A stretch of DNA of 64,000 nt from Marsupella aquatica. Taxonomy: Eukaryota; Plantae; Marchantiophyta. The stretch spans positions 5,488,476 through 5,552,475 of the forward strand of contig OZ316892.1 in NCBI GenBank assembly GCA_973895155.1. The letters are read 5' to 3'. Each line of letters begins with the position of its first letter. The first letter of the stretch is position 1. This document shows, piece by piece, positions 7,388-58,300 of this stretch. The notes below the pieces were generated by a model. The model searched no databases. It had not been told where the DNA came from and saw only the letters and a program-made list of their open reading frames with translations. The position numbers were made by a program, and so were the translations under genes.

Positions 7388-7993
7388 ATGACAGAAAGGC
7401 TGGAAGTAGGGGAGGCGACCATCATCTCGATTAACGGTCGTGTAGGAGTCAAGTTCTGCTATGAAGGCTGCGATGGCCTACTAGCAGATGGCAGAGTATG
7501 TGCCTTAGGCACAAGAGCTCGACAGAAAAGGCAAGGGGGGGCAGATATAGGAACCCCCGTTAGCAGGAATCGGTTAGCTCATGAGTGTAAGTCGCTAGGC
7601 GAAGGAGTGCCTATGTTCATGTTCACTATTCGGATCAAAGAAGGAAGCTGTCGTGTATGGGATGCGGCTAGGCAACAATTGTTCGGAATGAAGGGCGAAG
7701 AGTTCCGCCAACGATTCACCACCGGTGAGGCCATTGAGGAACTCTGCAGAAAGGTCATGCGGAAGAAATGGAATCTGCTGCTAAGACGGGAGAACAACCA
7801 CGATCAGCGGATTACGTGGCGATTAATCACCACCGAACAAGTAATCGTGGCCGGCGAACCGAGCAACCCCAAGGAAGATGACAGAAGTCAGGAGGTCGAG
7901 GCACATATGGCAAGATTAACAATCGGGAGTCCGGAAGCTTCCGGATCAGGCGCAACCGAAGGGAATCGAGGAGGCCGTTGCCCAGTTCAGTAA
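7388..7993 (+). CDS. RPA70 C-terminal (DBD-C, zinc-ribbon OB-fold)-like protein carried by the Gypsy element
   Basis: ATI...KFCYEGC..(9)..C...HEC...PMFMFTIRIKE..CRVWDAARQQLFGMKGEEF...IEELCRKVMRKKWNLLLR parallels RPA1 DBD-C (ATI..NFCYxAC..C.K..C..C..RYILQ..I.D..VTAF.E..E.IMG.SA..L..F..I..KV.F..Y.FKLK). Intact 201 aa with ATG. Confidence 0.7.
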   Translation: MTERLEVGEATIISINGRVGVKFCYEGCDGLLADGRVCALGTRARQKRQGGADIGTPVSRNRLAHECKSLGEGVPMFMFTIRIKEGSCRVWDAARQQLFGMKGEEFRQRFTTGEAIEELCRKVMRKKWNLLLRRENNHDQRITWRLITTEQVIVAGEPSNPKEDDRSQEVEAHMARLTIGSPEASGSGATEGNRGGRCPVQ

Positions 7994-8391
7994 CCAGGAA
8001 GACAGAACTTCTTGACATAGTAATCAGCAGTTCTTGGCTTCCACTCATCGTTCTGGTAGGCATTAGTTAGCGTTCTTGGTGAATGAGCGGAGGAGAGCAA
8101 AGAGGAGGCGCGAGTCGCCCAATTGTAATCGGCGCACCCCAAGAAGTAGTAGAGGCCTCGGGCGAAGATAGACGCGGGGTAAAGGTATTTAGGGGCTTTG
8201 AAGTACTAGTCACGGTGTCACTTTTTGCTAGAAGTCTGGGGCAAGGTAGGGCTCTGCTCACCTTAGGAATGCCAGCAATTTTGTAATAGTGTCCCTACTC
8301 AGTTGAGTAGTCTTTGAGTATAAAGAGAGAGTTTGGAATGAATGCAACAGAGTGAAGTCCGCACTTGAGCAGTGAATGAGAACATCGAATC

Positions 8392-8412
8392 AGAGAGAGA
8401 GAGAGAGAGAGA
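8392..8412 (+). repeat. (GA)n microsatellite in the LTR
   Basis: About 10 AG/GA units seen directly. Confidence 0.9.
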
Positions 8413-9128
8413 AGGAATTTGCCTTATGCAGCAAGTCGTTACTCGTTAATCGCAACAATGAATGAATATCGTCTCATTGCGAACCAGAACCTTACGGGCC
8501 AGCGCCTCAAGGTATAGGTTGAACAGACAGCTAGTGAGAAGCGGTGTCTGGTTGGAGATAGTGTGTTTTGAAGGCGATACACTGGTCGTCATACACCTCC
8601 ATCATACAAGGGTAAACGTGATACTGGGGTACTTGCTTAGGGTAACCCTGTCATAGTCACCCACACAATCCGAAAATCAATTGCCAGGCAGGCTGATTCA
8701 AAGGACAGCCGGACTTAATCAGGTCACGGCTACTACAAACCATGAACGCAAACAACAGTGACGACAAGTCTTGCTCCTTGATTACCTTAAGATCACTGGA
8801 ACTGTGGATCTGTTCTATCGGCACCCATCTTATTTCCCGTCAGTTACTATACGAGAACATTCCGATTTGCTTGATCACTTACCGCGAGTGGTGTGGGTTC
8901 ATTGAGATTGTGTATAGAGAGGGGTTAGTGTTGGCCGAGGCTGAAGTGCCTGAGAAGTGGAAGACGGAACTCGACATTCAAGAGCACTTGGTCGGATTCA
9001 CTTACGGGGACTGTGTCGAGATAGAAGGAGTGCCGTCTCTCGAAGGTCGGTTAATCGTTTAAACAAGATTATTGAGGAGAAGGTAGTTAAACGGCCATTA
9101 ATCGCAAGGTCGAAGTTGGCATTTAACA

Positions 9129-11480
9129 GTCCTTCATCTTAAATTTTGCACTAAGCAGTGCCTTGAGCTTAACAATCTCAGACCTATCCTTGGCTGCAAT
9201 TAGCATGTCATCCACATAAAGTACTAAAACAATGAACCCAAAGACAGCATTCTTCACCGGTTTAAGATACACACATGGGTCAAACACACTCCTGTGAAAG
9301 CCTTGTGATAGACTTATTCCACTGTCTTGGTGACTGCTTCAACCCGTACAAGGATCTCAGCAATCTGCAAACCAAATCCTCTTGCCCTTTCTTCACAAAA
9401 CCTAGCGGCTGTCTCATGAAGATCACCTCTTCCAAGGTGCCATAGAGGAAAGCTGTGACAACATCCATCTGATCTAGCAGCAGACCAAACATAACAACAA
9501 GCACACACAATAGCCGTATTGTTGAGTACTTAGCAATTGGTGAGAAAACCTCATTGTAATCCACACCTTTTTCTTGTGTGAATCCCTTGGCTACCAACCT
9601 AGCCTTGTAGACCTTCGATCCACCTCCTGTGGACTGATCCTTCAGCTTGTATATCCACTTGCTGTCCACCACTTGCTGTCCCTTAGGCAGCTTGACAAGC
9701 TCCCAAGTTTTATTGTCCTTCAGTGGTTGCATCTCCGTTTGCATTGCTGCAGTCCACTCCTGCTTCTCCTTTGAAGCCCTTGCTTCATGAAATGAAGAAG
9801 GTTTACCTTCTTCCAAAATCAACACATCACCCTCATCGTCAGTAACAAAATCCTCCTCTTGCAATTGAGATGAATCAACTCACTGTCCATACCTTGGTGG
9901 AGCGCGTACAGTGCGACCAGATGCTCTTCTAGCCGATGACTCCGGTTGATCTGCGTGTGCTGGTATAATTTGAAGCTCAACAACATCCACTTGCTGCTCA
10001 CTAGCATCAACAAACTCCTCTGGTTCCTCTGGCACACGAACCAGCTCCATAATTGGAGCAACTCCTTCTCTCCGGTCATGCACCTCATAACCAATCTCCC
10101 CCTCAACGAGATCCGGGATAGGAGATTTTCCTTTGTCAGTACGGGAGACCTGAGTATTCTCCCCTTCCTTCAATAATTTGGATTCATTGAAGGAAACATC
10201 CCTACTGATAACGAGCTTACAGGCAATAGGATCCCATAGCCTATAGGCTTTCACACCACTCTAGTACCCAAGAAAAACACATTTCTTGGAGGTAGGATCC
10301 AACTTGGTCCTATTCTACTTCGGCGTGAGAGCATATGCATCACTTCCAAAAACTACCAAGCCATGATAGTCTGCTTGCCGCTTATAGCGCATCTCAAACG
10401 GCGTTTTGAAATTGATAGCACTAGAAGGAGAAAGATTTACCAAATAAGCTGCGGTATTGATAGCTTCTGCCCAAAATTCTTGTGGTAAACCTGATTGGCT
10501 CAACATACTCCGTGACCATTCCAACAGTGTCTGATTGAGCCTCTCAACGACACCATTCTGCTGCGGAGTATAAACTATGGTGAGATGGCGAGTTATTCCC
10601 TATTCTGAACAGTACTCTTCAAATTCCATTGAAATGTACTCCCCGCCGTTGTCTGACCTCAAACTCTTCACCCTTGTATCCAAACACTTGACCGTGTTTC
10701 CAGTCTGATTCTCCACCTGGGCCTTCCACTTCTTAAAAATGGACAAGACATCAGACTTATGCGTCATGAAATAAATCCACACAAATCTTGAATAATCGTC
10801 AATAAATGATACATAGTACAACTTTCCAGAGTGTGAGGGAGTCGGGGATGGACCCCACACGTCACTATGTATGTACTCAAGAACCGCTTTGGAACGATGA
10901 GTTCCAACACCAAAAGCACGACAATGCTGCTTTCCAAGAATGCAATGCTCACAGAACTCTAATTTACAAGATTGTAAATCAGAAATGAGTCCATTCTTCC
11001 GTAAGATAGCCAAACCCTTCTCACTCATGTGGCCTAGCCGTGAATGCCATAGTTGAGTCATCTCCTTGTGAGACTTGGTTACATTGGCCTCTCCACATAC
11101 AGTATTGCCCTGTAACACATACAAATTCTTTTGTCTGCTCCCCTTCAAAATCATTGTCTCTCCCGACTTGACTTGAAGTTCACCATCAATAACGCTCCAT
11201 TGATGACCATTTGAATCCAACACACCGAGTGAAATCAAATTCTTACGCATGCCAGGTACATACCTGACTCCGGACACTGTGCGCACAACGCCATCAAACA
11301 TTTTAATCTTCACAGACCCAATTCCCTCAATTTGACAGGAGTGATCATTTCCCATCAGAACTGAACCGTTTGAAACAGAGTAAGAACTGAAAAACTCACG
11401 AATGTAATAAATATGAAAAGAGCAAGCACAATCAAGAATCCACACATCATCTGCTCTCCTAGATGACGTGCACAGGGCAT
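9129..11480 (-). pseudogene. Copia pol (PR-IN-RT) with stops and frameshifts
   Basis: Fragmented ORFs 10600-11445, 10315-10524, 9880-10254 and 9280-9864, plus the YVDDML segment near 9200. Confidence 0.92.
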
Positions 11481-11483
11481 ACC

Positions 11484-11791
11484 CCCGGCCTCGGGGGTTT
11501 CACTTCCACAAAAATGGCACATCACGTGCGACGAAGGATAGGGTCGTTTTATTGGTTTAAAGGGAAGACTTAAGAATTTTTGTAGAAGAACAATAGGGTC
11601 TTTTAAATTCAATTTTGAGACTTATAAGAACATTAGGGTCTTTCTAACCAAATTTTTGAAATATTCCAAGAATATTCCAACTTTATAGGGGTTGAAAAAT
11701 AATATATTTTTCTTACATTTTAGGGGTCCGAGGCCTAAAAACGTCATAGGGGATGGGGAGGCATCCATATAGTGAGACCCCCGAGCCCCTG
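11484..11791. mobile_element. ~308-bp MITE-like insertion between Copia gag and protease
   Basis: Imperfect 21-bp terminal inverted repeats (CCCGGCCTCGGGGGTTTCACT / AGTGAGACCCCCGAGCCCCTG), AT-rich core, interrupts the gag-pol frame (..LLNDE | YALCTSS..DVWILD). No clear TSD. Confidence 0.65.
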
Positions 11792-11794
11792 GCT

Positions 11795-12835
11795 TCATAA
11801 AACATTCTCATCATTGAGTAAATCAGCTTCTCCATCAGCCCTAGCCATATTTGTCGATGAAGTTTCCGCTACCTTTCCCTTATAGTCTCGCTTGAAGTGT
11901 CCAACTTGGTTGCACTTCCAACATGTCACTTGCCTCCTCTGAGGGGATTTACCCCTGGACTTAGATCTGGATTTAGATCTAAACTGGGTTCTACGGTCCC
12001 CAGTTGGTCGCTGCATACTCCTCCCACGGTTAACATTGAGGGCAGCACCAGATGATGAAAGCTGTGACATGATGTGCATCTTCTGCTGAAGATCATCACT
12101 AAGCAGAGAACTTACCACGTCATTGTATGAAATGGTATCCCTATCACGATGCAACAACACTCGTGATAGGGACTGGTAAGCTGGAGGCAATGAACTAAGA
12201 AGCTGCAGAGCCTTCGTCTCATCATTCAAAGTCTCCCCAAGGTTTTCCAGGTCAACGACCATGTCGTTGAAAGCATCCACATGGTCTTGCAACTTCGTAC
12301 CGGATTCCTTCATCCTGAAACTCATCAGTTTGTAGGCAGTGTAGAGCCGGTTCGACAACTCCTTGCGGTGATACTTGCTCTGCAATTCCGCAAACAAGGA
12401 CATGCAATCCTTATGTGCACCCAACTGCTTGATGATGGAAGGCATGAGATAGAGTGTAACACACCACACTCCCTGCTCCTGCATGCGGTCCCATTGTTTC
12501 TCATCAACATCGTCTTCACGAGGGCTCAACAGTTGGCCCATCCCTAACGCATAGAGCACTCCCTTCACCTGCTTCTCCCATAGCAAGTAGTTAGAGCGCC
12601 CATCATACTTTGTCACTTCATACTTGGGTCCCCCAAGCTTGAAAGTCCCCATCTTCTTCTTTGGCACTACCGTGAGCTCCGGTAGTAGTATTGCTTCCTC
12701 CACCACACGCCGCACCGGTGATGGTATCGGTGTCACGTGCTCTTCCTCCTGCTCCTCTCTTTGCCCCTCAAACCGCCGTGGTGATCCTCGTGCTTCAAGT
12801 TCCACGTCTTCGAAAAACTCCTCCGAATCACTCAT
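11795..12835 (-). CDS. Copia Gag (UBN2-type) with degenerate zinc knuckle
   Basis: KYDGRSNYLLW, LMSFRM, LLSSLP.Y, RGRS, CWKCNQVGHFKRDY. Confidence 0.9.
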   Translation of the reverse strand: MSDSEEFFEDVELEARGSPRRFEGQREEQEEEHVTPIPSPVRRVVEEAILLPELTVVPKKKMGTFKLGGPKYEVTKYDGRSNYLLWEKQVKGVLYALGMGQLLSPREDDVDEKQWDRMQEQGVWCVTLYLMPSIIKQLGAHKDCMSLFAELQSKYHRKELSNRLYTAYKLMSFRMKESGTKLQDHVDAFNDMVVDLENLGETLNDETKALQLLSSLPPAYQSLSRVLLHRDRDTISYNDVVSSLLSDDLQQKMHIMSQLSSSGAALNVNRGRSMQRPTGDRRTQFRSKSRSKSRGKSPQRRQVTCWKCNQVGHFKRDYKGKVAETSSTNMARADGEADLLNDENVL

Positions 12836-14220
12836 ATGAGAAAATCACAAAAAATGTCATTTTTCACAACTTCTCAAAAAACTCAAAACTTAGCACCGCC
12901 GCGTAGCCCACGAAGCTAGGACTCCAATACTGAAAATCAAAATCAAAATCAAAATTTGACGGAAAAGTTATTCAAATTTTGGTCGAGGTGGGTAAAACCT
13001 TGGGAAACTCCCCTGTTTTAACCACCTCAGGGAATAACCAAAATACCAAGTACAACCCGTCGTTGGAATTGCGATGTGATCAGTGCGCCGCGTTGCCAAC
13101 TTCAATGGCTACGACCTCGCCAAAAAAGAACCAAAAAAGTTATCGTTCGGCGGATGAAATCTTTGTCGGACGGTCAAAAAATAGCTCTCTGGTTTTTTGG
13201 AATATTCTATGACCCTTGTACAGGCCCTGTGGGAATTTTGGAAGAACAATCGAGGGGCTGACACGTGTCCTCGAACCCCCAAAACCCCCTACCACCCTTC
13301 GTCGTCGAAATCTGGTCGCGCGCGCAGAAAATACACACGGCAGAATGTACCCCTCAACACCAAACGCAAGATATCTCACTCGCGTTTTGACGAAATTAAG
13401 ATCTGATTTCAGATTTGGAAACTAGACTCCGAGGCGGTGAAAATCGATATAAGAAGCACCCAAAACAAGGAAAGAATGAGGGAGAAAAAAATTGGTAAAG
13501 ATGACAGATTTCTCTCAATTGCCATAGCCAATTTCGAATCAATTTTTCAAAGAGAAAAAATGGTACCTTGTCAACAACAAATGTTGATGAATTGCACTTG
13601 GTGCCGTCACCAAGTCCAACAAGGTAATTGATTTTGCTTAGCCTTCCTCTTCGCATCAAAGAGCCAATCCCGGACTCAAAAAAATCGTCTTGCCTCAATC
13701 TCTCCGTTGAGTCAAAATACTTGACGCTTCTCCCTTTGAGTCAATTGCCACGACAAGAAACCCCGATCAGGCAAAAGAGAACTCCATAGCCGGTCAGAAA
13801 ATCAGAATGCTTCTTTTGCTCGTCCCGTCGCACACGGTACACACTTGGTAACAAATCAGCTACCAAAACAAACAGCTCATCCCGATCTACAAGCAGAGCT
13901 ACAGCATGCGATGCCTCCTTTGCCGTAGAGCTCAAACCGTCGAGAAAACAAACTCTGGTCCCTCCTCCGAAAAACCGTCGAACACGAATGTTACCAACTT
14001 TCTTCACAAAATCCAGAACGACAAAAACTTAGATCTCTCTGCACCACGAGCTCCGTTCAGCAATTTCTTCACACCGTTAGAAAGCTCTTGCCCCGATCTA
14101 TCCGTTGAGCCCATAAACTCTAAGTTCCATGCAACGGAACTCCGAGAAATCCACCGACACTCAACACTGGAAAAAACCATCACAAAATCCTGTCACGAAC
14201 ACATGTCACCTCCCAGGCAT

Positions 14221-14232
14221 GCTCTGATACCA
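14221..14232 (-). other. Primer binding site (tRNA-iMet)
   Basis: TGGTATCAGAGC on the minus strand, 2 nt after the LTR end. Confidence 0.9.
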
Positions 14233-14234
14233 AT

Positions 14235-14579
14235 TGTTGAGCATAGACGACGATCGCAACGGCAAGCCCATGAACCATCCAACGCACAATAGTCGACACA
14301 GAGAGATACGTGGTTCACCTCCACATGAGGCTACGTCCACGGGAATATACGAGAGCTTTACTGCACTCTAGGCCGACCGGCCATACCAAGCATCCACAGC
14401 ACAAGCTCTCCCTATCTCTCAACTGGCTCCGTAACAATGAGCCTGAGTTCCACCTCTCCAAGCAAACACCGCTTGGTTATAGAGTGTGCACAGCATGACT
14501 AACCTAACCAAGTGTGCGACTAAGGTTAGTCTTAACTACGGTACATTCGTAACTCTAGACCTAAGAGTAAATCCTAACA
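14235..14579 (-). repeat. Copia 5' LTR (345 bp)
   Basis: TGTT...AACA termini adjacent to the PBS. Confidence 0.8.
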
Positions 14580-15071
14580 AATCCGTATTGGAGTTCGGAT
14601 TGAATCAGGAAATGCAGGAATGTTCCAAACCACTAAAATTAATGCTCACAAACATTCAATTTATCAAGGAAAAATTAGATTCGGAAACTTTCGCCTGAAC
14701 CTCATATTCACGCTCTCCGAAGATATATGAAATGTCTTATCTAGAAATCCATATCCACTTTTTGAGCAAAGTCCGATAATTGTATCGGACTCCGGATTTC
14801 AACCATGAAAGTTCCGACACAATCTCAGTTTTCTCAGTTTTTGGTTATTTACCGTAACTATTTTACATCACAGTCAATAAGAAATTATTGCACGGTTTGT
14901 CAAACTTACCTTGTAGTTACCTCCGCAATTGACCATAGTTACCTCCGCAAGTGACCATAGTCAACATGCCGTTGTTTCAATAGCAATGCGCAGTCCGATA
15001 AAATTATCGCAAAAACTACGAACGGCAAAAATACTTGCCGACAATACTAAGATCCTTTGGTTCATCGGTTA

Positions 15072-15231
15072 AATTTCAAAATTGCAACTATCCATATGAA
15101 GAAAACACTTTTTGGAATACCAACATCAGATAAATTTATCGCTTCAATTTCAAAATTGCAACTTCCATATTCAGAAGGAAACACCTTTTGCAATACCAAC
15201 ATCAGATAAATTTATCGCTTCAATTTCAAAA
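15072..15231. repeat. ~75-bp tandem duplication containing the GATAAATTTATC palindrome
   Basis: Units start at 15072, 15146 and 15222 (partial). Confidence 0.85.
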
Positions 15232-18200
15232 CTATATAATTTTGCCACAATGCACGTGTAAGAATGAAATTAGAAATCCAAGAAATATACCCTTCTCTGC
15301 TATTTTCTCGTTTAGGGCGACGGCCAATCAAAAGTGGCCACATGGGCCAACCCGTCAATAGACACTATAAAAGGGCCACCACCGATAAGTTTTTGGCGTC
15401 ATTATCCAGAGTAGATTTTTGGGAGTTGTGTTCTTGGAGCAACATTCTGTCCGCTGAGCCATTCGTTTTCCCTGATTGAGGGAGTAATGCAAAGTCCCAT
15501 AGTGTCTCAAGTAGCCATGTCTGAATCAGACACAGATTCACCTTCAAGTTTAGTTGAATCCTCTCCTAATGTTATCGCCCGCTGTTTGCCAAGTTGCATA
15601 CTTAAAGCTCTAAACCTCTCTCACAACAGATAGTGCCCGAAAGCTCTGGCTCAGATTCTGATGCAAGTTCTGGTCCTTAGCCCAGTTCTTACTATGTGTC
15701 GCCTAGTAAACGTGAGAAGCATCATCTCTTGAGCGTTCCATCGCCAAGAAATGAGAAACTTTCAATTCCAGGTTTAGGTCCAAGACGTCACTTCAGGCCA
15801 TCCATCCCGGGTTATGGAGAGGGTATCCGGCGACGGATACGCATATCGCACTCGGCATTCAAGTCGCCACATTCAACACACGTTCAACGACGGATCTTTC
15901 AGTCTTCGAGTGAGGATCGGGAGGGAGAAATACAAAGACCGATACGGCGATCGGTCTTTGCATTGCCTGGACTGGACATGCGAGCAAGCGAGCGAATCGG
16001 ATTGCAAAGTCCAAACTCGGCCCTTTCCTGAATGGTCCGTGGGAATCGTGGTGAACAAGTGCTCAGTTTTCCTGCAGCTCGCAGAGGCGTTGGGACTGCA
16101 CGTGTGAATTCGGAATCTCCAAGTTCTCCAGGGCGGACTATGATTGGTTCTTGGCTCTAAGTGTCGAGGAGACGTCTTAGTGGCGTTCGGGTTATGTATA
16201 GAGAGCCACGGAGTCCAATTGTGTTTTCAGATGAGTAGAGTGGATCAGAGGACGAAGATCAGGAAGGAGATAGAGAATCCGATATCATAGTACAAGTTGT
16301 GTCTAAATGTTTAGAAGGAGCTGTAGAAGAGAATAGTTATAGTCGCCTTTTCAGTGCCCCTCTAAATGCGTCAAGGAGATTTATGGAGGATGGTAGCTCA
16401 GCAGAGAGTGATGCATCTATTCACGAGGTACCTGAAGGACCCAAAAATATCAATGTTATCAACGGATTTCAGGCTATAGAGAAGTCAAATGAGCCTAGTG
16501 AAAAAGATAGAGACCGAATTACTAGGAAAGACAATGTGATAAATGATAAATTGAATAGAAACAAAATGGGAGAAATTTATAAGTATCCGGGCTGTTGTGA
16601 TAATTTTTGTCTGAGGAATTTGGATTTGCAGGATATGACAAAACAACGCACATATTACTATGGGCTATCCTACCAAGAGAAGAACGTACTTCTACGAGGA
16701 TGTGTGAAGGGTGGGCATGCCGGTGCAAGTGGTTACTCAGTTAGCGGTAGATCCTTTTGTCGGAGTGGTTTTAAGAAATTATTTTCACTAGGAAATAATT
16801 GTCTCCAAAAAATCTCAAAGAACATGTTTTCTCGGATACATGTTTTCTCGGATACAGATACATTTTGTAGAGAAAAATTGTCCGCACATCTTGGTCTCAT
16901 TAAGTGGCTGGATGATTTTTTTACTGTCACAAATGTAGAGAGTCTCCCCAACAAGGTTATCTTTCATTTACCTGACAATTGGACAAAAACAAAAGTTTTC
17001 GATGCCTTCCAGTCTGAAACTCTAATGCGCCAAGAACAAGGCGTGACATATTCATGGTTTGTTTGCATTTGGAACAAGGAGTTTCCTTGCGTCCGCATCC
17101 CCAAAAGGAGTCATTTCTCCACCTGTGCCCCGTGTACTGAGTTCAAAGCACTCCGTGACAAGGCAACACTCGAAGCAGATAAGAGTAAGTTTCTAAACCC
17201 GTGTGTTGTACTCCCGATAATTTTATCGGGTTGAGTATTCCCATGCTTCTTCTTTGGTAATGTGTGTGAATATATCGTTTGAACAGTTTGAATACTAATC
17301 CCGATAAATTTATCGCTGTCATGCTTTAACATTACCGTTATTGTGTTTGAATACTGAACCCGATAAATTTATCGCTGTCAGGCCAGCAAAGTCCTAAACC
17401 TTTTTATTATTGTAGGAAAATTCTCAACGGAAAAGCACTGGAGCAAATGTTATAAGAGTTCGAAGAAATATTTGGGCATCTGTATTGATGGAATGGATCA
17501 AAAGAAGACAGAGTTACCTCATTTCATTTGGTGTCCAAAGAATATGGATGAAAAGTATTTCATCCCTGTACACGTAGTGGGTTGTCTGATCTTCAACAAA
17601 CAATTAAGTTCAAATGTTTTTTTGAACTATCCAAATATTCACAATGATAGCAACTTGACCATCCACGTTATTCAGCATATTTTGAATACCTGGGAAGGTC
17701 CGCTTCCTCCAGTGCTGTACCTCCAGCTTGATAACACTGCTCGAGAAAATAAGAATAAATATTTTATGGCATATTTGAACATGTTGGTGAGATAGGTGTT
17801 TTCCAGAAAATAAAGGTTGGTTTTTTGTTGGTGGGGTACACCCATGATCAAATTGATCAAATGTTTAGCAAGTTTTCTTCAAAATTGAACAAGCAAAAAG
17901 CTTTTCGGTTGGACACTCTTTCCGCAATCATAGAGGAATCCTACAATCCTACGGCAAAGATATTTTTCGTTGATGAGGTTGCCGATTTCAAAAAATTTGT
18001 GTCTGACAAGGATCAAGCAAATGACAAAGATATGGATAGTCAGGTTCTGCGTACTCTCCATGGCATAAGTGCTCAGAAACAATTTTGGATTACAGGAGTA
18101 CTTGAAGATGGAAGTGCTCGGTCTGTCTTCCATGCCAAACATCTTTCCACGACAATAGATTGTGAGGAGCCCGTGGAATTTGTTCGGTATATTCCTTCAT

Positions 18201-18293
18201 CTGGAATGTGGGTCGCACCACAAATGGCATTGAAGTCGGCCACGGGAGCAATAGGAGACAATGATGAGCAAGAGAATGATACTAAGGAACAAG

Positions 18294-20745
18294 TGTCACG
18301 CGATTGACATGGGTCTTAACACCAAAGACGTCACTATGGGTGCCAAAACCATCTCCTTGTACCTGAGGATCACGAAGGGATGCTGTGAAGGCCGGTAAAC
18401 ACCACTTTATGCCCTTAACACCAGACTATCATAACAAATCTGTCACACATCACCCAAGCTCAATCCCTAAGAACCAAGGTTGGGGATCAGATCTGCGCTC
18501 ATGATAGTTCTAGTGAGAAGGGGTCTTCATATCGGGCCCGTACACACAGGGCCTAGCGCTACGGTGCGCATAGGTCTATACATATGCTTACTGTCATAGG
18601 TATGTTTCTATTCCGCCACCGGAATGTACCCATAAACCAGTGACTCCTGACTGATTCCCGGCTTAGGGACTTCTAAGCCATTGCCCCACCACTCTGCCAT
18701 TCCACTCTCAACAATCAGAGCTATGACAGTCCTCACCCAGCCCGCTTCAATGCACCCTATACACCTCTCAGTGGCGCTGCTAGTCCCATCATACACTCAG
18801 ATTGCCTCACACACACACACATCCATGAGAGAAATGAGGCCTGAGAGGAAAACTCAATTAGATTCAAAGATGTGCACAATAGTTCACTGAGAACACTTGA
18901 TCCGAACACTAGGGCCGAAGGCTGTCTCCTCCAGATTGTGACGTGCTTGCCCCGCAAGCCCCGTGCTTGCCATGCAAGCTCAATCCTGAACCTGAGCCCA
19001 GCTCACTCCAGATTGCGACGACAGATTGGACTCGAACCAATCTCGTACTTGCCTTGCAAACTCAATCTTGAACTCAACCTCCTTCATTGCACTTCATTCT
19101 TGGGGACACGTACAGATCTCACACCTCCATTTCAGAATGTCAAGTTACGCATGCACAGTTGACTCGACTTCAAAGCTGGTACCAGGCCTAACGGCGATCT
19201 ACCCCAGACTATAATGAGGCCCGGCCTCACGCTTGCCCTGCAAACTCAGCCCTGGCCATAAATCCCTTAGTGCTCTCTACCAGACAAAGGCCGGGACTCC
19301 CCATGGATCACGTAGCCTTGCCAGACCGAACTGTAAATGCTCCTTCTGCTGCCCCTCAATCAGTGTCTCAGCCTCCCTAATGTGCTCACCACAAATCACA
19401 TTGAAATCCTCCCCACAGTTTACAATCACCAATACATCACCTATCACAAGGCTCTGTATCGGGGGAAAAGAACCCAGTTGTGCTGCCCACTAGAAAGAGC
19501 CACAATGCAGCTCGCAAACCTAGCAACCCGTTGCAGCTGTGAAGCTTGGCTGATTACTCCCTAAGTAATAGCACAACCAAGCTTTCCCCAACACGCAGCG
19601 TCCAAGTCCAGCCTTGCTTGCACAGAGCTCCTCCCTGCTGCTCAGTCTAAGTGAGATCACACAACTGAAGTTCCCCCCCTGCCTCTACCGGGGGGCTGCT
19701 CTATATACTCTCATACTGAGCCCAAATGGGTGGATACTACGCTGTTGGAGCCCCATCCCAGCCCTAACAGAGCCGCCACTATCTCTAACTACTGAACCCT
19801 AACTCGCAACTTTATTTCTATCTTGAATTGACTATGTTCTTCGGATTTGGCCTTCCTCCATGGTTTTTGCGAGCTTGCGCCTCCTCTCCCGATTTCTCTA
19901 TTCAACCATTTGCTGCGTGGATAGCAGCGTTGGAAGCGGCTTGAGCTCCTCTTTCCAACGAGGTCAATTATAGCCGATTTGGTCCAATACACAGAGAGTT
20001 ATGCCCCGCAACCGAGAGGGGGTACTCACTGCTGCGCTAACTCGAGTTACATAGCTAACCCAAGTTCGGCTAACCTAGCTATCCTATCTAACCCGAGTAG
20101 AGCTAACCCGTGGTCTCGGGTTAGGCCGCTACCCGCTATCCGCTATCCGCTAACCTAGCCTAAGCTGAGCCCGAACCCGAGCTTACCTATGCTAACCTGA
20201 GCCCGAGTTTAGACTAACCCGAGTTCAGTCTAACCCGGGATCAATCTAATCCGAACCCGGGTTAAGCCTAAGCTGAAGCTGTGTTGACCTGAGCTAAGCT
20301 GAAGCCGTGCTTACCTAAGCTAAGCTGAAGCTGTGCTTACCTAAGCTAAGCTGAAGCCGTGCTCACATAAGCTAAGCCGTGGTCGAGCTTGGGTTAACCC
20401 GAAACTGAAGCCGAACCCGCTAATTCCGGCCACAAGTTAACCCGTCACACTAATCAGGCCGTATCTTCCTTAATACACCTCCGTTTCTCGAGTGTTTTAT
20501 ATCGATTTTACTCGCCTTGACCAGATCTTTCCAATGCTCTTTACAGATCCGGATTTGGTGACATATTGAAAGAGATATGGTCGCCGACCACCCGCGACAT
20601 AGCTTTTATTTCCCTACTCTTAACGCCATGATTGCCCTTATTCTTGCCATCTTGCTAATTGTTATGCGGTATCAATAGCTACTCCTTGCATACAGCAACC
20701 TAGTTAATCAGATCATAGAATAAGGACCATGTCATCGGCGTCACA
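18294..20745 (-). mobile_element. Solo LTR (2452 bp) with 5-bp TSD ACAAG
   Basis: TGTCACGC...GCGTCACA termini; ACAAG at 18289-18293 and 20746-20750; no coding domains; host transposase frame continues across it. Orientation inferred from TATA (~19702) and the repeat array. Confidence 0.9.
20030..20445. repeat. Degenerate GCTAACCCG / CTAAGCTAAGCTGAAGCCGTGCTTA array within the solo LTR
   Basis: About 25-bp tandem units at 20268-20380 plus many TAACCCG motifs. Confidence 0.8.
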
Positions 20746-21124: not shown

Positions 21125-24100
21125 CTTCACTGGAAGCACTTGTCGAAAATCACCTGCAAATACAACTACAACCCCTCCAAAGATTCGGTCATTATCTCAT
21201 ATGTCGCGTAAAGTTCTATCCAACGCCTCCACTCCATGCCGATGGATCATGGGTGCTTCATCCCACATAATAAAAGTTGCCCTCCGCAATAATCCAGCAA
21301 GGTCAGATTGTTTTTGGATGCTGCATGTCGATGTCGAGATTGGTTTCAATGGTAGCTTGAATCTTGAGTGTGCGGTGCGACCTCCATCTAACAAAAGACT
21401 TGCAATACCCGAGGAAGCTATGGCCAATGCGACATCCCCATCTGCACGGACTCTCCGAAGTAGAACATTCTCCACAAATGTTTTGCCCGTCCCCCCTGGT
21501 CCATCAATAAAGAATGTCGCTCCATCTCGAGCCCTCACGGCTGCAAGTATTGCAGTGTACATTGCCCTTTGACCCTCGTTCAACAACGGCTCTTGCTCTG
21601 CAAGTTGTTGTAGAAGTACATCCATTGGATAACATGTCTCCTCTCTTATCAACCGGTTTCTATTTTCTTCCTCTTGGAAAAAATCCATACCTGGTTTCGG
21701 AAGACCAAACTCCAACAATGTTTTACCCACACTTTTCAAAGCCTCATCCATCAAATGTAGAGCAAAGCTTTGTTGTTGCTGCTCTGTAGAATCTAAGAAG
21801 CCCATCAATTGCAAACGATACCTACAATCATCACTCAAATTGGATGCATGTTGTGCCCATAGGTCGCACGGTTTGGCAACACCTCCAAACAACAATATTG
21901 TAATAAATAGTTGTCGTATTTGCACACCGGTGTGCATGCTTGCCGCTTCTTGAAGGCATCTATCCCACTCCTCATCGTTCTCATACAAACCCCGAGCAAG
22001 AGCCGTTGCTTGAAAGGTGGGGTATACAGTGCCCTCAAAAGTGCGAAGGTCGATGAATGATGTTGCACCTTTGATGTGAAGAAGAAGCGCCCTCAAATAG
22101 TACCGTTCACCCGCGACTGGTGGCACAAAATACATCCTACCAATGCTAAACCCTCTTCTTCGTGGGTTCCATGCACGGGAGGACGTATCCCATACAAACT
22201 CATGGGGGAAATTGCTGTAGAGAAGTTGTTTTGCCTGTTCATGCAAAGTGTTAGCTCTGAACCACCCTGTGAGAGTTGTGTCCCTATGAGATTCTTGTTG
22301 AACCACATCACTGATGTTAGAATCCTCATTGAACATTATAGATTGTTCCCCCTCACAATGAACTTGCAGCCGTTGCACCGAAGTAGTACTCTCAGACATT
22401 TCAAACTGGTTAATGCGCCATACTCCCTCAGCAGCAGACACATATCTGGCATCTAAGTGCTCCTTCACTTCATCTCGTTGCTCCACCTCAACCGTTGCCT
22501 TATCATGCCCTTTATAACAGTACTTGTATAAATACTTGATTGCTTTAATAGAGCAACAAATCTCCACATTAATATGGGCATTGAATCTCATGCTCAAATA
22601 TGGACTATGAGGAACAACCCACCTATTGTCAAACTTAAACCCACTTCGGTCTTTTGAGAAATTGCGGCCATCATCCCGACGTCGATACATAGGATACCCA
22701 TCATCTCCAAAAACTGTTTCGGTTGAGAATGATCGTGGATAGCCCTTGCTGCACTGCCCGTCAACCATGCAAGGTGAGTTTGGATATACACGACCGCATG
22801 GACCATGGACCATGGACTTCATAATAGTTTCATATAATTGTGGATGTACTTGTGCGTCCGGTATCTCCGCCGACACCAATTGATCAACCAACTCTGGAGT
22901 GCGTAACTTATGTCGTTCCACCAATATTATCAGAATGTGGGCGTGCGGCAGACCCCTCTTTTGAAATTCAATGACATACATAGAGGCAATAGGTCTACCC
23001 AATACCCCTGCCCGAATATCCGCCAACAGGGCCTTCAACTTAAGTTTGTCGAACACTCTCGCCACAATGTCATCGCGGTTGGCCGGGGTCTGGTAGGGGA
23101 AGCACTCCACTTTGATTTCAGGCCATTCAGGATTGCACGTAAAAGTTGTGAAAAGGTCAGGAGGCCCATATGTTCGAACAACTGCCATGGCATCCTGATA
23201 GGCTTGCATCATATGTCATGCACTACCCCCATATGTGGACGGTAAAATGTAGGTCCTACCCACATTGCTTGCTTGTGCATCCCCATCTTGAACTGCATCT
23301 TGTAGCCCTTGATATAACTCGGTCCTAAGCTTTTTCTGATTGTTCCGAATATATGTGAGGCGTGTCTGGTCTATACACGCATATGCATCCACAATAAATT
23401 GCTTTAGCAATCTTCCTCCACGAAGCAGCCAATCATCTTCCCGCCTTGCATGTAACATATATGCATAGTATTGAAGTTGGGTCACTTTCTTAGAACCATT
23501 TCGTCCACCCCTCGCTCCTGGTTCAACAGGCACAATGACCCCATCTTGGAATTCGTGCCCTGCCAACGGGATGTCATAAGACCATCCATCCTGTCCATGA
23601 GGAAAGAGTAAAACATAATGGAGCGGTGCATAGGACCTATGCCACTCGGAAATCCGTTGTAGGCCACCATTCCTCTTCCTTAGGATTATATCCCTCCCAC
23701 ATGTTTCAATATCCTCATCTCCGACCATTATCACGCCAATTTCATCTGCCGTCGGCTTATTGTAGCGCCTAGGGTCTGTGTCCCGCTCCGCTACAATACG
23801 TAGCAATACGTCTGGCACATCGGTGTTGTCAATGCGGCTCCCTGCATTTTTAAAGACCCTCACATATGGATTGTACGTATGGAGCATCTCTTGCAAGGAA
23901 GCCAACACCACCTGATCCAATTGTGGCATCCTATTCATCCTGGAACCCAAAAAAAATCCATAAGACAGCTTATTCCAAAGATCATGTAATATGAAAGGAA
24001 ATTGAGGCAAAAAGTTGTACATGTTAATTACCTGTTCCCCAACTCATTCCCTGTGTCATGAATATAGAGTGGAGCAAACTTCGGCCCCGCTCCATCAGGC

Positions 24101-27100
24101 GGTAAGAGGCTACCGACACGATGATATAATGCTCCTTGGATACGAAAGGAGTACGGGCCACAATTTCCGCCCCTTTCATCAATTTTAACACCTAGGGACG
24201 TAAATGCTAGTGCATTGTTGTAGCCATGAATGTTTTTCCGGAATGCTACAGCTGCGGCATTGGTACCAATCAGCAAGCCTCAAAGTGGTTCAGGAGGAGC
24301 ACCAAGCAGCGGTAATCCCACTTTCCCGTCGGCACAACACATGGTGAAGCACGGGTTGCGTTGTGTTCCTGACTTGCACTCTTCCATCCAATGAAGCGCT
24401 TTGCATTGTGGGCACTCGATGTTCATTCGCCCCAAAACATGTCTACCCATTGCAGGGTCCAAAGGCTGCCTTGCCTTTGGCAACCGTTGGATCTCTTCCA
24501 ATCTTTGATGCTCCCACAACACGTCATCAGGATTGAGTTGAGCTGGGGTAACTGGTGCCAGGTTTGTGCCTCCCATTTCCTCTTGGAGGATATTCTCAAT
24601 CTCGTCCTCCTCATATTCATTTGGCAAATCCAAGGTGCCCTCAATAAATGTGTCAAATTGACCTCCTCCATCATCGAGGATAGGATTTTCCCCCTCGTGC
24701 AGAGCATCGTCAATGAGCCAATCTTCATCAAAGATGTCATGGTTATTTGACCGTTCATTGTTTGGTATGGATTCATAGGGCATGGGGACGGCCAAAGGGG
24801 CAACCCCATCTTGTAAAGCGCCATCAATAAGCCATCCCTCGTCAAAGACATCTACATGTTGTGGCACAATGTTGGTCATGGGCTCGCATGGTGGGGGGAT
24901 GGCAAATTCCTCTGGCTCAGGCTGGTCAACCCTACATGCATCCAAGGCACCATCAATGAGCCATCCTTCATCGAACATGGGAGGGTCAGATGCAACGCTC
25001 ACGAGCATCACTGCATGGCTGGATATTGCACTTGGGGCAACCTCTCGACTGTTATTGATAGCAATGGATCTGGCCAAGGCTTGTTGAGTAGCCCTAGCTT
25101 CACGACGAAGCTCCCTTCCACTATTTGCGCGGCCAGATGCCAGAGTTGATTCCCCGGTTGATTCTAAACTTGCCCCCGCAAGGGAGAGCAACGGTCTCGC
25201 CAACGGTGATGTTGGAGTTTGTCGTGGTGCCCTTTCTTCGCGCCGTAGTTGTCGACCACTAACTCTGTGGGCAGGTGGCACACTTGGCACCACACCTGAA
25301 CCACTTGGTTGTGGTGCCAAGAGTGCCACACTTGGTTCCAGCACCGGGGAACCCATAGTTGGTGTGGCACTTGGTTGTGGCACTGCACAGACTCGAGCCC
25401 CCTCTTGCAATCGTCGTTGAGCATATTGTTGCCGACGCCTTGCATTTATTGCTTCCTTATTTTGGGTATGACGCTCACAATCAGCTTCCAGCCTCTCCCT
25501 TGGGGTTCTCATGGTGCAAAAACTCTCAAAACCCGTCCATCATCTGCATCCAACCCACAAAACAAATGATAAGTTTTTACGCACCCCCAATTCAAGCTCG
25601 ACAGACCCCTAAGTATCTTGAACGCCGGTTGGGCCACACCTTTGCAAGAGACCCGAGACATGTGAGGAGACCCAATATCCGTCGAGGATACTGCTTACCA
25701 CAATCCCTCGTCTCACCCCCCCAACCTTGGTGGCGATCATCCTCCTTCTAGAATGTCACTTGCCCCTACGGTATCCACTTTTGGAGCCTCGACCACCCTT
25801 CATTCCAGTGGTCACCCATCCTGAATCGCAACTAACATAGTGTTAGATTTTATTATGGGTCACCCCATGGGGTGTGGCCACCATCAAACTCCCCTGGTTG
25901 CCCATTGCACATAGCATCGCAAGTACCCACCATCCACTCCCCTGGTCACCCATCCCGCATCACATTTCCAAAAAGTATTCAAATTGCTATGAGGGCCACC
26001 CATAGGCTGTGGGCACCAATCCCATCGTCATCCAAAGTCCCGTCGTCATCCAAAATTGCCTCGCGATTAGTAGTCCCCTCATATATGCATCTGGGGTCCT
26101 GCCACCCCCGGACCACGTTTGGCAGACATTTTTTGGCCCCCAACCCCCAAACTACTCGGACCAAACGGAGCGGGGAAGAGCGCACGGCTAGGAAGGAGGG
26201 ACGGCAGGGGTTGGCAGGGAATGTTGGGCCCTCTTGCCTGGGTCCAGGCGTGCTCAAGAGGGGAGCGAGGCAGCCACGGCACAATGGCAGCATGAGGGGG
26301 CGAGCGAGGGGCAGGCAGGGTCAGCAAGTATGGCAGTGGCAGGAGGCCCTGGCAAGGCGAGGGCACAACATGACGGCAAGGCAGGGCAGGCGAGCCTGGT
26401 CCAGGCGCACGGGGAGTGAAGCTGCGGCAAGAGCCAGCCATGGCGAGGCAGAGCCACAAAGCAGCAGGGGGCGGCAGGAGGGGGCAGGCCGCGAATGAGG
26501 GGCGCACGTAGGAGGAGGGGGGAGGAGGGGGCAGGCCGCAAGGCATCCTCCCAGCAGCAGGGGCGAGCAAGGGGAGGCCGTGGCGAGCAAGGAGGGGAGG
26601 CCGCGCCGTGGTCTGCAGGGCAGGCGCGCAGGGGAGGGGAGGCTGTGGTTGCCGCAAGGCAGGGCATGGCAGGCGCGCACGGGAGGGGAGGGGAGAGAGG
26701 TGAGGGGAGGAGGGGCGCTGGCAGGGCAGGGCAGCCACGGCAGGCGAGCCTGGGTCCAGGCGTGGCAGCTGCGGCAGGGCAGGGCATTGGCGTGAAGGAG
26801 GCCGTTGCAGGAGGGCAGGGCAAGCGAGCTCGGCCCTGGCGAGCTGCAGCAGGGGCTGGCAGGGAGACCGCAGGCAGGAAATGGGTGCGCGAGGCAGGGC
26901 CGTGACAGACCGGACGCAGGGCCGTGGCGAGCCTGGCGGCAGCAGCGAAAGGGCCATGGCGATGGAGGGAGGGAAACACAGCAGCAGCAACGTCGGCAGT
27001 GCAAGGGCCGTGGCGAGGCACGAGGGAGGGAGGGGAGGAGACGCACGATGGAGGGAGGGGGGAAACGCGCGAGGGCGCGAGGGGGGAGGGAGGGATGGGG

Positions 27101-33730: not shown

Positions 33731-34145
33731 AGACTACAAACTATATGCATGTTCATATCATCTTTAGGACGGAATGGGACCTTCCTTTTCTACGGGGTTG
33801 TCAATAGTTGGTCAGTCCATGAGCAGGCCATGCACAGAAATCAATTGGAACACCGCACAAACTTAGTTCACGAATCACGCGTTAGCCACATTGGGAAGGA
33901 AATGGCTAGAGCTAGCTGTGCAAATCACTGGTTTCCATGTTGTAGAGAAAGTTCCCGGAGAGGGGATGATTGATGTTCATAGATTCAAGATGGCGGCACA
34001 CCGAGGGATCAGGGATGGCTCCAGTTCTGTACTCACTGGTCTATCATCATGCGAGGCAAACTTGACGGTTATACTTACTTTCCCAATCCCGAAGCAACGA
34101 ACGTTTGCCATTTGGCCTTGGGCAAGGGGAGGAAAGGAGGCAAGA

Positions 34146-36932: not shown

Positions 36933-36934
36933 GC

Positions 36935-51996: not shown

Positions 51997-52098
51997 ACAA
52001 CATGAGTTGAGACAATTGCTTTGCAACTACACAACATGAGTTGAGACAATTGCTTTGCAACTAGACAACATGAGTTGTGACATTTGCTTTGCAACTAG
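51997..52098. repeat. 3 x 34-bp tandem repeat
   Basis: ACAACATGAGTTGAGACAATTGCTTTGCAACTAS units, no spacers. Confidence 0.92.
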
Positions 52099-53909
52099 AG
52101 TACGTCTCAGTGACTGGACACATGTCTAGATGCACAAAGTGACTAAAGTTTTGATGGACCTCCACGTTTACAAAAATGCTCAGGATATACTTTTAGACTT
52201 TTGCAGCTGAGACAGACTTATTTTCTGTTCAGATGGTAGTATGGTACATATTACACTGGTAAGGCAGATATGACAAGAATACCAGACAAGTCATCTTTAG
52301 GAACCTGTAGGTCTCACAATTCTCATTCGTAGCTGTTGCACAATTTGATTCCCTCTACATGCACGGCGTTGCAGATCTAGAATGAACAGTCTCCTCTGGG
52401 TGTGCATGAAATGACTCAGGGTTTGCACTGCCTCTATTCTCAGATTGTTGTTTCTTTAAATAGGCAAGAGTGCAATTTCATCATTTTGTCTCGGATTTTG
52501 TGAGCAACCAGAATATATTTGCTTGGGAAGTCAAAAGAAAAAAGATAGTTGACCAGGAGCTTACTGTCTAGGAATTGGCATCCCAGGTAGTAAATTTGAG
52601 AATATTCTATCATAGTGATAGAGTACCCATGGTGGGATATTTGAGAATATAAATAGTAAAAGTAGCCATTGTAGGATATTTGTGCAATAGAAAATCGTGA
52701 GATCAAGTAGTGGGACCTTTGTGTCTCTGTGACGTTCCCTGTAATTGCAGATCAAAATGTGCTACTGTACTCTGTAATATGTTAATTATTTCCTAATATC
52801 ATAATGAACCCAATCATTTTGTTTAAATCACTTAGTGTTGTTCACAGTGACCACAGTATACTGTTGCATACCATGAAAATCCAATTACTCAGTCTCTCTA
52901 ACTAAATCACTGAGTGTTATTCACATTTTTTATATACAATTAGGGAGTAAAAAAGGAGGTGGTACTCCCCTTGTCATGTTTTGATGTACAACTATCAGGA
53001 CGAGTAAGAAAGGAGGTGGAACCCCCCCTGAGTGGATGGAAAACCAATATTCTCACCTTCCCTGTACATACTGTAGTAATATTCCTCACTTCAGGTACTG
53101 ACGTGAAATGCACTTCTCACCATATCACTTAGTCCCAGGTGCCCTTTCCTCCACTCGCCCTTAGTAACTTGGGTAGGGTAGTCACGGGAGGATCTTTCGA
53201 ACAACGGCACAGGACGGAAATAACAAATGCTTAATTAGGGCATCTCAAACTATCGATTTCCCGGGTCGTTTTACTGTGCCAAAATTGCGCGGGCAGGGCC
53301 GTGACCGGAAAGTGGGCGGTGCCCAAAATCGGTGACCGTCAATAACTCGGACGGTCACATTACCGTTACCGTGACCCGAGTGGGTCCATGACTAACCCTA
53401 TCGTCTGAGGGACGCAGTGACAGAAAAACTAGCTGCGCGCGACAGAGAAGCCGGGGATGTGTGCGACAGAGAAACTGTTCCTTCTCGCACTGTGCGTGTT
53501 TGTGCGACTACATGCAGGGCGCCCATGATCGCAAGGCTGTCAACTCATAGCGATTGACACTTTTTTCCTGTAAGTTTGTTATGGTTTTGGGCTCCCACTT
53601 AAGCAAGTCATTTAGAGTACAGGAGATCGCTTTAGGCTGACATGCTAGAGCTGCATGTTGATGCTCGATTTTGTGAGCAGCTGCCAGTGAGGAGCTGCCA
53701 GTGAGGAGCTGCAAGTGAGTGTAAACAAAACTACGGCTAAGTGTAAAGGACCCACCTTCGACAATCTGAGAGGCTACGACTGAGCATACTTGCAGGACGA
53801 CCCCGATTGTTTGGCACTCGACTCACACCTGATTGTAAGTTAAAGATCACCTCAATGTTTTTCCGCTTTTGTTTCCTGCAATGCTCACAACCAGGACAAG
53901 GGATGTTGA

Positions 53910-54542
53910 ATGGCTGAATGCTTCGTCGTTTGCCAGGAGGCCATGGCTCATTGGATTTCTTTGTCAGACGTGGGGGAGAAGAGAGCTAGAGGCATGAGTA
54001 CGCAGTTCGCACCGTCTTTAGTTTGGGCAGCAAACTACACAGCTCGAAATCCCTACCCTCAAAAATTTGTTTACTCCTCTTGCCCTCATAGGGACAATGA
54101 TGGACATCGATGTAACAAATCTTTGGAATGGGGCGATAAATGTGGACATCACTTACCTGGAGAACCTGCCTTTCGATTCCAACTGGTCTTGTTTGATGCC
54201 ATTCATGGTGGTGTGCAGCCTGTGACAGTCTTGCTGTGGAATTGCGCTACCATTCTCTTGAATTATACAGCACTTGAATTCAGCATTCTACCTGAATTTG
54301 AGCAAATTCAGATTGTTTATGACATTCTGAAGCATTCGCCCAAGCTACAAGTCTCTCTTGAAGTGAAGGGACTCGAGATGCACATTCAGAGATTGAGTTT
54401 TGTGGATCCTGGAATTCCCAGGACACCTACAAAAACCCTTGTCAAATCGAAGTCCAGTCCTGGGAAACCTAAGAGTGCCAAGAAAATCCTAGCAGACCTC
54501 GTGTTGCAATTGAAGAATGCAGATTTAGAGGACTTGGATTAG
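53910..54542 (+). CDS. RPA70 C-terminal (DBD-C, zinc-ribbon OB-fold)-like protein inside the Harbinger-type element
   Basis: KFVYSSCPHRDNDGHRCNKSL...CGHH...PAFRFQLVLFD...VTVLLWNCATILLNYTALEF matches the RPA1-C pattern F.Y.ACP....C.KK...C..C...Y...L.I.D...VT.F......LG.SA.EL. Intact 210 aa. Confidence 0.72.
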   Translation: MAECFVVCQEAMAHWISLSDVGEKRARGMSTQFAPSLVWAANYTARNPYPQKFVYSSCPHRDNDGHRCNKSLEWGDKCGHHLPGEPAFRFQLVLFDAIHGGVQPVTVLLWNCATILLNYTALEFSILPEFEQIQIVYDILKHSPKLQVSLEVKGLEMHIQRLSFVDPGIPRTPTKTLVKSKSSPGKPKSAKKILADLVLQLKNADLEDLD

Positions 54543-58246: not shown

Positions 58247-58300
58247 AAGGAGCCTAACTCGCACTACCCAGATTTTTGAGAAATTCTGAGGGGGAACGAC

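Follow-up and report, generated by a model that had tools for sequence, protein, structure and literature searches.

Predicted stand-alone RPA1 DBD-C-type OB genes in a Gypsy retrotransposon and a Pangu-type DNA transposon of the liverwort Marsupella aquatica

Two short genes in two unrelated transposons

We analysed a stretch of 64,000 nucleotides from the liverwort Marsupella aquatica (assembly GCA_973895155.1, contig OZ316892.1, positions 5,488,476 to 5,552,475; hereafter the window), in which two transposons each carry a short gene that appears to encode a single OB-fold domain of the kind known as DBD-C in RPA1. The window is transposon-rich plant DNA, in which a Pfam scan finds Gypsy, Copia, Helitron and DDE elements. 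An earlier note, made from the sequence letters alone, had described the two open reading frames (ORFs) as intact and about 200 codons long, and both are indeed open throughout, encoding 201 amino acids (aa) in P0001 and 210 aa in P0002 (Table 1). Their assignment to two unrelated transposons also stands, since the contexts are established as Gypsy for P0001 and Harbinger-type for P0002.

P0001 belongs to a Ty3/Gypsy element in which reverse transcriptase (RT), RNase H and integrase follow one another in the expected order, although this copy of pol is interrupted by an in-frame stop (2514-2516) and the 5' end of the element lies upstream of the window start. Between pol and P0001 there is a further sense ORF of 925 codons, with an acidic low-complexity N-terminal half, conserved-looking aromatic residues mid-way and a long coiled coil in its C-terminal half; no Pfam family scored above the cut-off for it. 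The RT of a Copia element on the minus strand is broken off and resumes directly after a CA terminus at 9128, which we take to be the 3' end of the Gypsy element; on this reading P0001 is situated between pol and the Gypsy 3' end. The Copia element itself (9129-14600, minus strand) has a primer-binding site at about 14232, and its RT is split by the Gypsy insertion. In contigs from four sequencing runs the P0001 region has a high summed depth, which is not the same as copy number. Among the contigs listed, none alone joins the 925-codon ORF to P0001, while in run X2 two contigs (6930-7327 and 7298-7600) do so together through a 30-base overlap. All four runs also contain a second Gypsy subfamily, whose alignment to the window copy spans 7394-7852 and shows 70 differences but not a single gap in 459 bases; it is about 15% divergent in the ORF, and its flanks on both sides fall below 80% identity.

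P0002 is the third ORF of a 5.85-kb transposon (53237-59087) and lies upstream of a DDE_Tnp_4 transposase. The element is bounded by a pair of 15-base terminal inverted repeats (TIRs) with ATT on both sides, and contig depth rises at its left end and drops at its right end in four of four runs (in run X2 from 26-30 outside the transposon to 83-147 over P0002 and 80-232 over the transposase). A contig of 2643 bases from run X3, about 16% different, links the end of P0002 with transposase segments, so a diverged copy of the transposon keeps the same layout. The Pangu group, which is Harbinger2 in Repbase, is described in section 6 of PMC4482050 as having ANT target duplications, TIRs that start with AG and a second ORF in which no motif is recognised. 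In the Marsupella element the duplication reads ATT, as the group's ANT would have it (it can also be read as a 2-bp TA, as in PHISTA, and no empty site was seen), and the TIR begins with AG, where AG or GG is expected. By its duplication, TIR and ORF features the element would thus be typed as Pangu/Harbinger2. Over the miniature element nested in it, summed depth is 20-50 times as high as over the enclosing transposon. A transposase motif search retrieved eight distant Pangu loci, at 33% identity, which we take to be fungal-like. The OB gene is absent from these eight loci in tblastn and profile searches, several of the loci having short flanks, and neither JGI metagenomes nor viral contigs held any related locus.

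Table 1. Features of the two elements that carry the OB genes (window coordinates)
Feature	Position	Strand	Evidence or remark
Gypsy pol: RT, RNase H, integrase	450..3977	+	Pfam RVT_1, RT_RNaseH, Integrase_H2C2, rve; ORF list
Gypsy element, extra sense ORF of 925 codons	4407..7184	+	ORF list, Pfam scan
P0001, stand-alone DBD-C-like zinc OB gene (family G)	7388..7993	+	ESM Atlas, profiles, contig copies
P0001 predicted zinc site C28, C38, H65, C67	7469..7588	+	Family alignment
P0001 likely C-terminal amphipathic helix, ~residues 166-179	7883..7924	+	Alignment, by eye
Gypsy 3' non-coding region and LTR-like (long terminal repeat) end	7994..9128	+	TATAAA at 8319; CA terminus
Left TIR, preceded by ATT at 53234-53236	53237..53251	+	TIR search, depth step
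P0002, stand-alone DBD-C zinc OB gene (family H), predicted	53910..54542	+	Likely start 53943
P0002 predicted zinc site C58, C68, C78, H80	54081..54149	+	Alignment
P0002 predicted C-terminal amphipathic helix, residues 190-203, after Ser/Pro/Lys-rich linker	54477..54518	+	Model
DDE transposase, two exons, inferred GT-AG intron 55549-55639	54705..56055	+	Pfam DDE_Tnp_4
Second transposon ORF, without Pfam family	57146..58246	-	Pfam scan
Nested high-copy miniature element, 17-nt inverted ends	58300..58776	.	Depth, inverted repeats
Right TIR, followed by ATT at 59088-59090	59073..59087	+	TIR search, depth step

Two families with a DBD-C-type fold

The residue pattern of DBD-C, as we defined it only after both ORFs had been inspected, occurs twice in the six frames of the window and in none of 1000 residue shuffles of its 87 long frames; a profile search of 1632 window frames found no third OB gene. 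Compared directly, P0001 and P0002 show no significant local similarity (shuffle p 0.05-0.16; hhalign 1%), in agreement with the earlier description of the two as very divergent, and we dropped their pairwise similarity as proof of kinship. Nor does either protein alone have a Pfam match, including at the cut-off of Rep_fac-A_C (PF08646). Word-based protein searches retrieved a single relative for P0002, none for P0001 and, with a 75-row profile, three proteins.

A three-row joint profile run against 1.84 billion representative proteins was more productive. It yielded 103 proteins, of which 88 also score with P0002 alone (family H) and 12 with P0001 alone (family G), whereas P0026, P0097 and P0101 were discarded as artefacts of repeat-driven matching. 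The 100 relatives have a median length of 210 aa and 92 of them do not exceed 300 aa; none contains a second copy of the domain, which bears out the claim that the gene is a stand-alone one. All ten relatives with a named organism are liverworts: among 28 members looked up, nine were named, two from Calypogeia fissa (family G) and seven from Riccia sorocarpa (family H), and another C. fissa protein belongs to family H. The seven are distinct clusters from one Riccia genome. Four Riccia proteins (P0034, P0038, P0064 and P0106), encoded at several loci, join the family-H domain to a common C-terminal region of 300-450 aa without a Pfam match, and these fusion genes are possibly a third type of element carrying the OB gene. 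The protein nearest to P0002 is P0003 (78% identical), and since P0003 and family H begin at what is M12 of P0002, translation of P0002 likely starts there. When 88 relatives were scanned against Pfam, with 15 short or long matches excluded, one passed Rep_fac-A_C (P0058, 30.4 against a cut-off of 28.5) and nine more had weak matches to Rep_fac-A_C or CDC24_OB3.

The alignment of family G with family H by hhalign has a probability of 96.5% (E 7.7e-10), a value that may be inflated since the members of both were collected with the joint profile. The H profile gives 3-23 bits on 13 G proteins and at most 2.4 on reversed sequences. It is apparently as families, and not as a pair, that P0001 and P0002 are related. 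The first two predicted zinc cysteines have a spacing of 10 residues in 50 of 63 rows of family H and in 12 of 12 rows of family G, compared with 5 in yeast RPA1, and this common spacing hints at a common origin of G and H. A longer zinc loop is also found in some plant RPA1 paralogues.

For P0002 a structural model was built from 75 sequences, the alignment deriving from 73 of the 88 H matches after 15 fragments or fusions had been removed. The model (pLDDT 90.6) is an OB barrel in which a zinc insertion separates strands 1 and 2, and three helices lie between strand 3 and strand 4. The top seven Foldseek rows are human or Ustilago RPA entries or repair complexes that contain RPA (E 2e-5 to 1e-4). 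With VIA-align, Teb1 OB-C scores highest at Z 14.1, followed by the RPA1 of Ustilago at 13.7 and residues 439-600 of human RPA1 at 13.3 (root-mean-square deviation 2.4-3.0 over 136-140 residues), i.e. Teb1 and RPA1 are tied, while domains of POT1, CTC1 and RMI1 share the fold at a lower Z of 8-10. Against PDB sequences, the family-H profile has yeast RPA1 DBD-C as its top match (E 0.0043), and neither the family-G profile nor P0001 or P0002 singly has a match; a viral structure library gave none at E 0.001. In the case of P0001, the single-sequence model has a pLDDT of 34, which makes a structure search on it meaningless. ESM Atlas puts P0001 nearest to Rep_fac-A_C (0.92, 187 of 256 features, 24 of 30 matches), which, given a low recognition score, is moderate evidence; it returned no usable match for P0002. 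On the strength of the model, the Harbinger protein is confirmed as having a predicted OB fold of the RPA1 DBD-C type, and profile and language-model evidence indicates indirectly that the Gypsy protein shares it. The DBD-C pattern that the earlier note had read in both ORFs has thus held up, and an OB fold is predicted where its absence would have counted against the proposal. Among the checks that the note had put forward, the structure search indeed ranks RPA first for P0002, whereas direct Pfam matches are lacking for both proteins.

Ligands of the zinc type are retained across the 100 diverged relatives, the predicted set being CCCH in 56 of 75 H rows (fragments included) and CCHC in 11 of 13 G rows. 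In eukaryotic RPA1 the set is C4, and in archaea C4 or C3H, according to the available text of PMC8329085. Three aromatic positions of family H (F/Y43 in 61 of 68 rows, Y55 in 66 of 68, W/F110 in 69 of 73) likely match the stacking residues of RPA1, and basic residues occur at K/R52, K/R70 and R89; in contrast, the DNA-stacking Trp of RPA1 strand 3 is not retained in family H when aligned with yeast RPA1. The tryptophan found where RPA1 usually has phenylalanine, which had been taken as common to both genes, is typical of family G (12 of 13) and no marker of family H, where W (35) and F (34) divide the 73 rows, and we dropped it as such. In front of the domain there is no DBD-F, DBD-A or DBD-B, the match beginning within the first residues, and at least 90 residues precede it in only three of 100 relatives. 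As 92 of them are no longer than 300 aa and two domain copies occur in none, DBD-A and DBD-B, as well as DBD-F, are absent from the relatives too.

Selection and possible roles

Between P0001 and the second Gypsy subfamily there are 12 synonymous and seven non-synonymous differences in 39 codons (7451-7567), one of the latter being private to the window copy. The resulting pN/pS is 0.19-0.25 (p 0.0004-0.003); it covers 39 of 201 codons and 19 differences among the rows listed, 40 of 100, and these 19 match the overall density of differences (16%). As for P0002, its 44 substitutions relative to P0003 have an average BLOSUM score of +0.64, compared with a neutral expectation of -0.51 +/- 0.25, and none of 3000 simulations reached that value. 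By these measures both ORFs are under purifying selection. Neutral evolution, or occurrence as single copies, either of which would have undone the original proposal, is therefore not what we see: pN/pS is about 0.2, the changes in P0002 are conservative, and both ORFs recur in other copies in four runs. The idea that the genes are neutral passengers, functionless fragments of RPA1, fits with the lack of a direct Pfam match for either ORF; however, it is largely refuted by the pN/pS value, the conservative substitutions and the retention of zinc ligands in 100 diverged relatives, and we regard it as very improbable.

What the domain might do depends partly on its tail. After the last strand of P0002 there is a Ser/Pro-rich linker and then a predicted amphipathic helix (model residues 179-192). 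An amphipathic pattern is seen in 55 of 60 family-H tails compared with 34.9 in shuffles (maximum 46 of 2000), and the tail helix of family G was recognised by eye in the alignment. The C-terminal helices of RPA1, RPA2 and RPA3 form a bundle that is required for the trimer (PMC8329085). Foldseek alignments to RPA trimer-core chains extend through the tail (206-214 columns), a weak indication, as any helix can align. Strings resembling SUMO-interaction motifs (SIM-like) occur in 10 of 60 tails compared with 1.2 in shuffles, the pattern having been fitted afterwards; they are located where the tail helix ends, e.g. in P0056, P0074, P0089 and P0098.

The reading that we favour, while holding it tentatively, is that the accessory gene encodes a truncated RPA1, which by docking on host RPA2/RPA3 would dampen silencing or damage signalling that depends on RPA. 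The gene would have arisen from the 3' portion of a gene of RPA1 type, either of the host or of a Helitron, and the tail helix would be the old trimerisation helix, now on a lengthened linker; DBD-C and its tethered helix could then dock on host RPA2/RPA3 to give a reduced RPA of benefit to the element. Having no DBD-A, DBD-B or protein-recruiting DBD-F, such a hybrid complex would bind ssDNA (single-stranded DNA) weakly and signal poorly, and at element DNA it might blunt RPA-dependent, replication-coupled silencing or damage responses. In Arabidopsis, RPA2A has a role in transcriptional silencing. We favour a truncated RPA1 because the weak-binding assembly domain is kept and the strong binders are lost in elements that differ chemically, and a host-directed role would fit a gene retained by both a retrotransposon and a cut-and-paste transposon. 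DBD-C is a weak ssDNA binder and the high-affinity domains are DBD-A and DBD-B (PMC8210275), which, with the latter two missing, weakens the case for protection of ssDNA intermediates. The more far-reaching version, in which a mini-RPA1 passed between liverwort element classes, hijacks RPA2/RPA3 and generally suppresses replication-coupled transposon silencing in trans, so that transposons would supply a core replication complex with a decoy subunit, strikes us as rather unlikely.

Several observations weigh against a truncated RPA1 that assembles with RPA2/RPA3. In RPA1 the helix directly follows the last strand, whereas in P0002 the OB match ends at residue 157 (600 in human RPA1) and the helix begins at 179, about 21 residues beyond the position of the trimerisation helix. 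The length of family-H tails is very variable (median 72 aa), and the Riccia members have a different C-terminal domain in place of the tail; a displaced helix on a variable tail resembles a docking motif that is free rather than a helix fixed in a bundle. The fold itself does not single out RPA2/RPA3 as partner, since P0002 is tied with Teb1 OB-C and the fold is common to POT1, CTC1 and RMI1 domains. Families G and H are parted by a long branch (0.93, support 99, in a quick tree search without host RPA1 or Helitron RPA) and differ in the order of their zinc ligands, so they need not share one job. Finally, the evidence on element context comes from the two window elements and close copies of them, and does not extend to the 100 relatives from the database.

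A free docking motif would suit an adaptor, in which the zinc OB domain binds ssDNA at fork gaps, repair gaps or R-loops and the tail helix recruits a host protein, the integrase or the transposase, thereby steering insertion, or repair at insertion and excision sites, in some members via the SIM-like motif. This is possible, if doubtful. The aromatics that likely match RPA1 stacking residues, the basic positions, the long and variable Ser/Pro-rich linker, the SIM-like strings chosen post hoc and the recruitment of host RPA to L1 integration sites, mentioned in a review, are all in keeping with it; yet the strand-3 stacking Trp is not retained, the integrase and the Pangu transposase offer no obvious common surface for one helix, and P0001 and P0002 themselves have no clear SIM-like string. 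Alternatively, the protein may bind the DNA or RNA of its own element, as a transposition chaperone or a VANC-like, sequence-specific anti-silencing factor. The structure matches include the telomeric fold relatives Teb1, TEBP-alpha and POT1, which are sequence-selective binders, and the rapid divergence of G and H would fit co-evolution with each element. Helitron RPA, too, has been proposed to bind ssDNA during transposition (PMC4067079, PMC11417382). Nevertheless, we consider such an element-directed function unlikely, given that only the weak-binding domain is retained, that neither type of element has the long rolling-circle ssDNA of Helitrons, and that no tandem motif array is seen in either, the nested miniature element aside. 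One may also consider a liverwort host family of single-DBD-C proteins that was captured separately and recently, the selection then being host history. Several of the 100 relatives are annotated genes in C. fissa and R. sorocarpa (the genes of these two species include CAM6124012.1, CAM6096102.1, KAL3693793.1 and KAL3687891.1), the eight distant fungal-type Pangu loci have no OB gene, and ESM Atlas holds Rep_fac-A_C clusters of 190-200 aa in plants and arthropods. However, the selection shows between copies of the elements: in the Gypsy subfamily, at 15% divergence, the frame is preserved and the flanks drop below 80% identity, and the 2643-nt contig joins the ORF end to the transposase at about 16% divergence. 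Seven clusters in one Riccia genome are also what would be expected of mobile genes, and we regard this origin as quite improbable.

From sequence, then, the two elements appear to carry real, selected RPA modules, captured by transposons and consisting of DBD-C only. According to the available parts of PMC7264820 and PMC6317226, neither origin nor function is known for most of the extra ORFs in plant LTR retrotransposons; here, one such Gypsy ORF and P0002, the third in its Pangu-type transposon, can be assigned to a defined RPA module with about 100 relatives. That only the domain of subunit assembly is retained suggests a route to host replication or silencing unlike that of Helitron RPA or VANC. 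Such a route lends itself to direct tests in Marchantia, and the module could give a handle on how RPA contributes to the silencing of transposons.

Neighbouring elements and known systems

Elsewhere in the window, a Helitron at 21197-25539 is distant from both ORFs; its Rep/PIF1 gene, on the minus strand, has a G-rich repeat block upstream (21197-27500 for the two together), and a profile search found no RPA-like frame near it. A DUF7869-coding region (14980-18307) with a 46-nt inverted repeat (14980-15025 and 17199-17244) is probably another DNA transposon, and a repeat of about 1.7 kb, present twice about 4060 bases apart and 80-90% alike (30099-35779), resembles the LTRs of an old non-coding element. 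The window also contains a chitin-binding gene and, beside the Pangu-type transposon, an isopentenyl-transferase gene (IPPT/IPT) without introns (60801-61958, plus strand).

In the open literature, with Repbase and subscription journals outside the search, we found no publication that describes a family consisting of DBD-C only from LTR or from Pangu elements, let alone from both transposon classes. The available text of PMC6317226, PMC11963269 and PMC7264820 mentions no RPA match among Gypsy extra ORFs, and that of PMC11377751 and PMC4122759 holds nothing relevant; the survey in PMC6317226 included only ORFs of at least 250 codons and would have missed a gene of about 200. Table S1 of Han et al. 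2015 (PMC4482050), in contrast, lists a CDD match to RPA_2b-aaRSs_OBF_like in ORF2 of HARB-1_ALy and Harbinger-1_Bvul, two angiosperm matches that its main text does not discuss. An OB gene in a Harbinger element is therefore not without precedent, and the novelty that had been suggested for both kinds of element is weakened for Harbinger; for Gypsy we found nothing in print. The resemblance goes as far as the PIF/Harbinger superfamily and an RPA-type OB match. The angiosperm matches, whose OB type is given by the CDD label only, sit in ORF2 (373 and 462 aa) of TWA-type elements, whereas P0002 is a third ORF of about 200 aa, in an ANT-type element that has an ORF2 besides. Like the Pangu/Harbinger2 PHIS elements of PMC4482050 (section 6), the Marsupella transposon has an ANT duplication, AG-starting TIRs, a DDE transposase and a motif-less second ORF; unlike them, it has a third ORF, is 5.85 kb long compared with an average of 3.5 kb, and lives in a land plant, a kind of host missing from the Pangu hosts listed there, which include two algae.

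The domain is equally close to RPA1 DBD-C (PDB 1L1O, 4GNX/4GOP, 8RK2, 6I52; PF08646) and Teb1 OB-C (3U50), at Z 13-14 for both. It resembles RPA1 DBD-C as described in PMC8329085 in its five-strand barrel, its zinc insertion following strand 1, the three helices that separate strands 3 and 4 and its C-terminal helix; it departs from it in being stand-alone and transposon-borne, without DBD-A, DBD-B or DBD-F, in having CCCH or CCHC ligands for C4, in its identity of about 16% and in a helix that stands behind a linker of at least 20 residues. Helitrons and Helentrons are established carriers of RPA genes (PMC4067079, PMC11417382), in which a captured RPA homologue likewise serves as an accessory gene and was captured more than once. 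Helitrons, however, are rolling-circle elements with ssDNA intermediates, while here an LTR retrotransposon carries one gene and a DDE transposon the other, and neither ORF lies in an element with Rep/helicase; furthermore, the RPA of a mite Helentron comprises DBD-A and DBD-B (PMC4067079, PMC11417382), whereas the genes described here have DBD-C only. The sharing of one accessory gene by unrelated elements has parallels in TET/JBP (PMC12730594), Fanzor (PMC3627910) and the ORF3s of bdelloids (PMC5408684), which are derived from hosts or prokaryotes and shared within one host lineage. Those, as far as the available text of these papers describes them, are enzymes, whereas the RPA module is non-catalytic and spans class I and class II.

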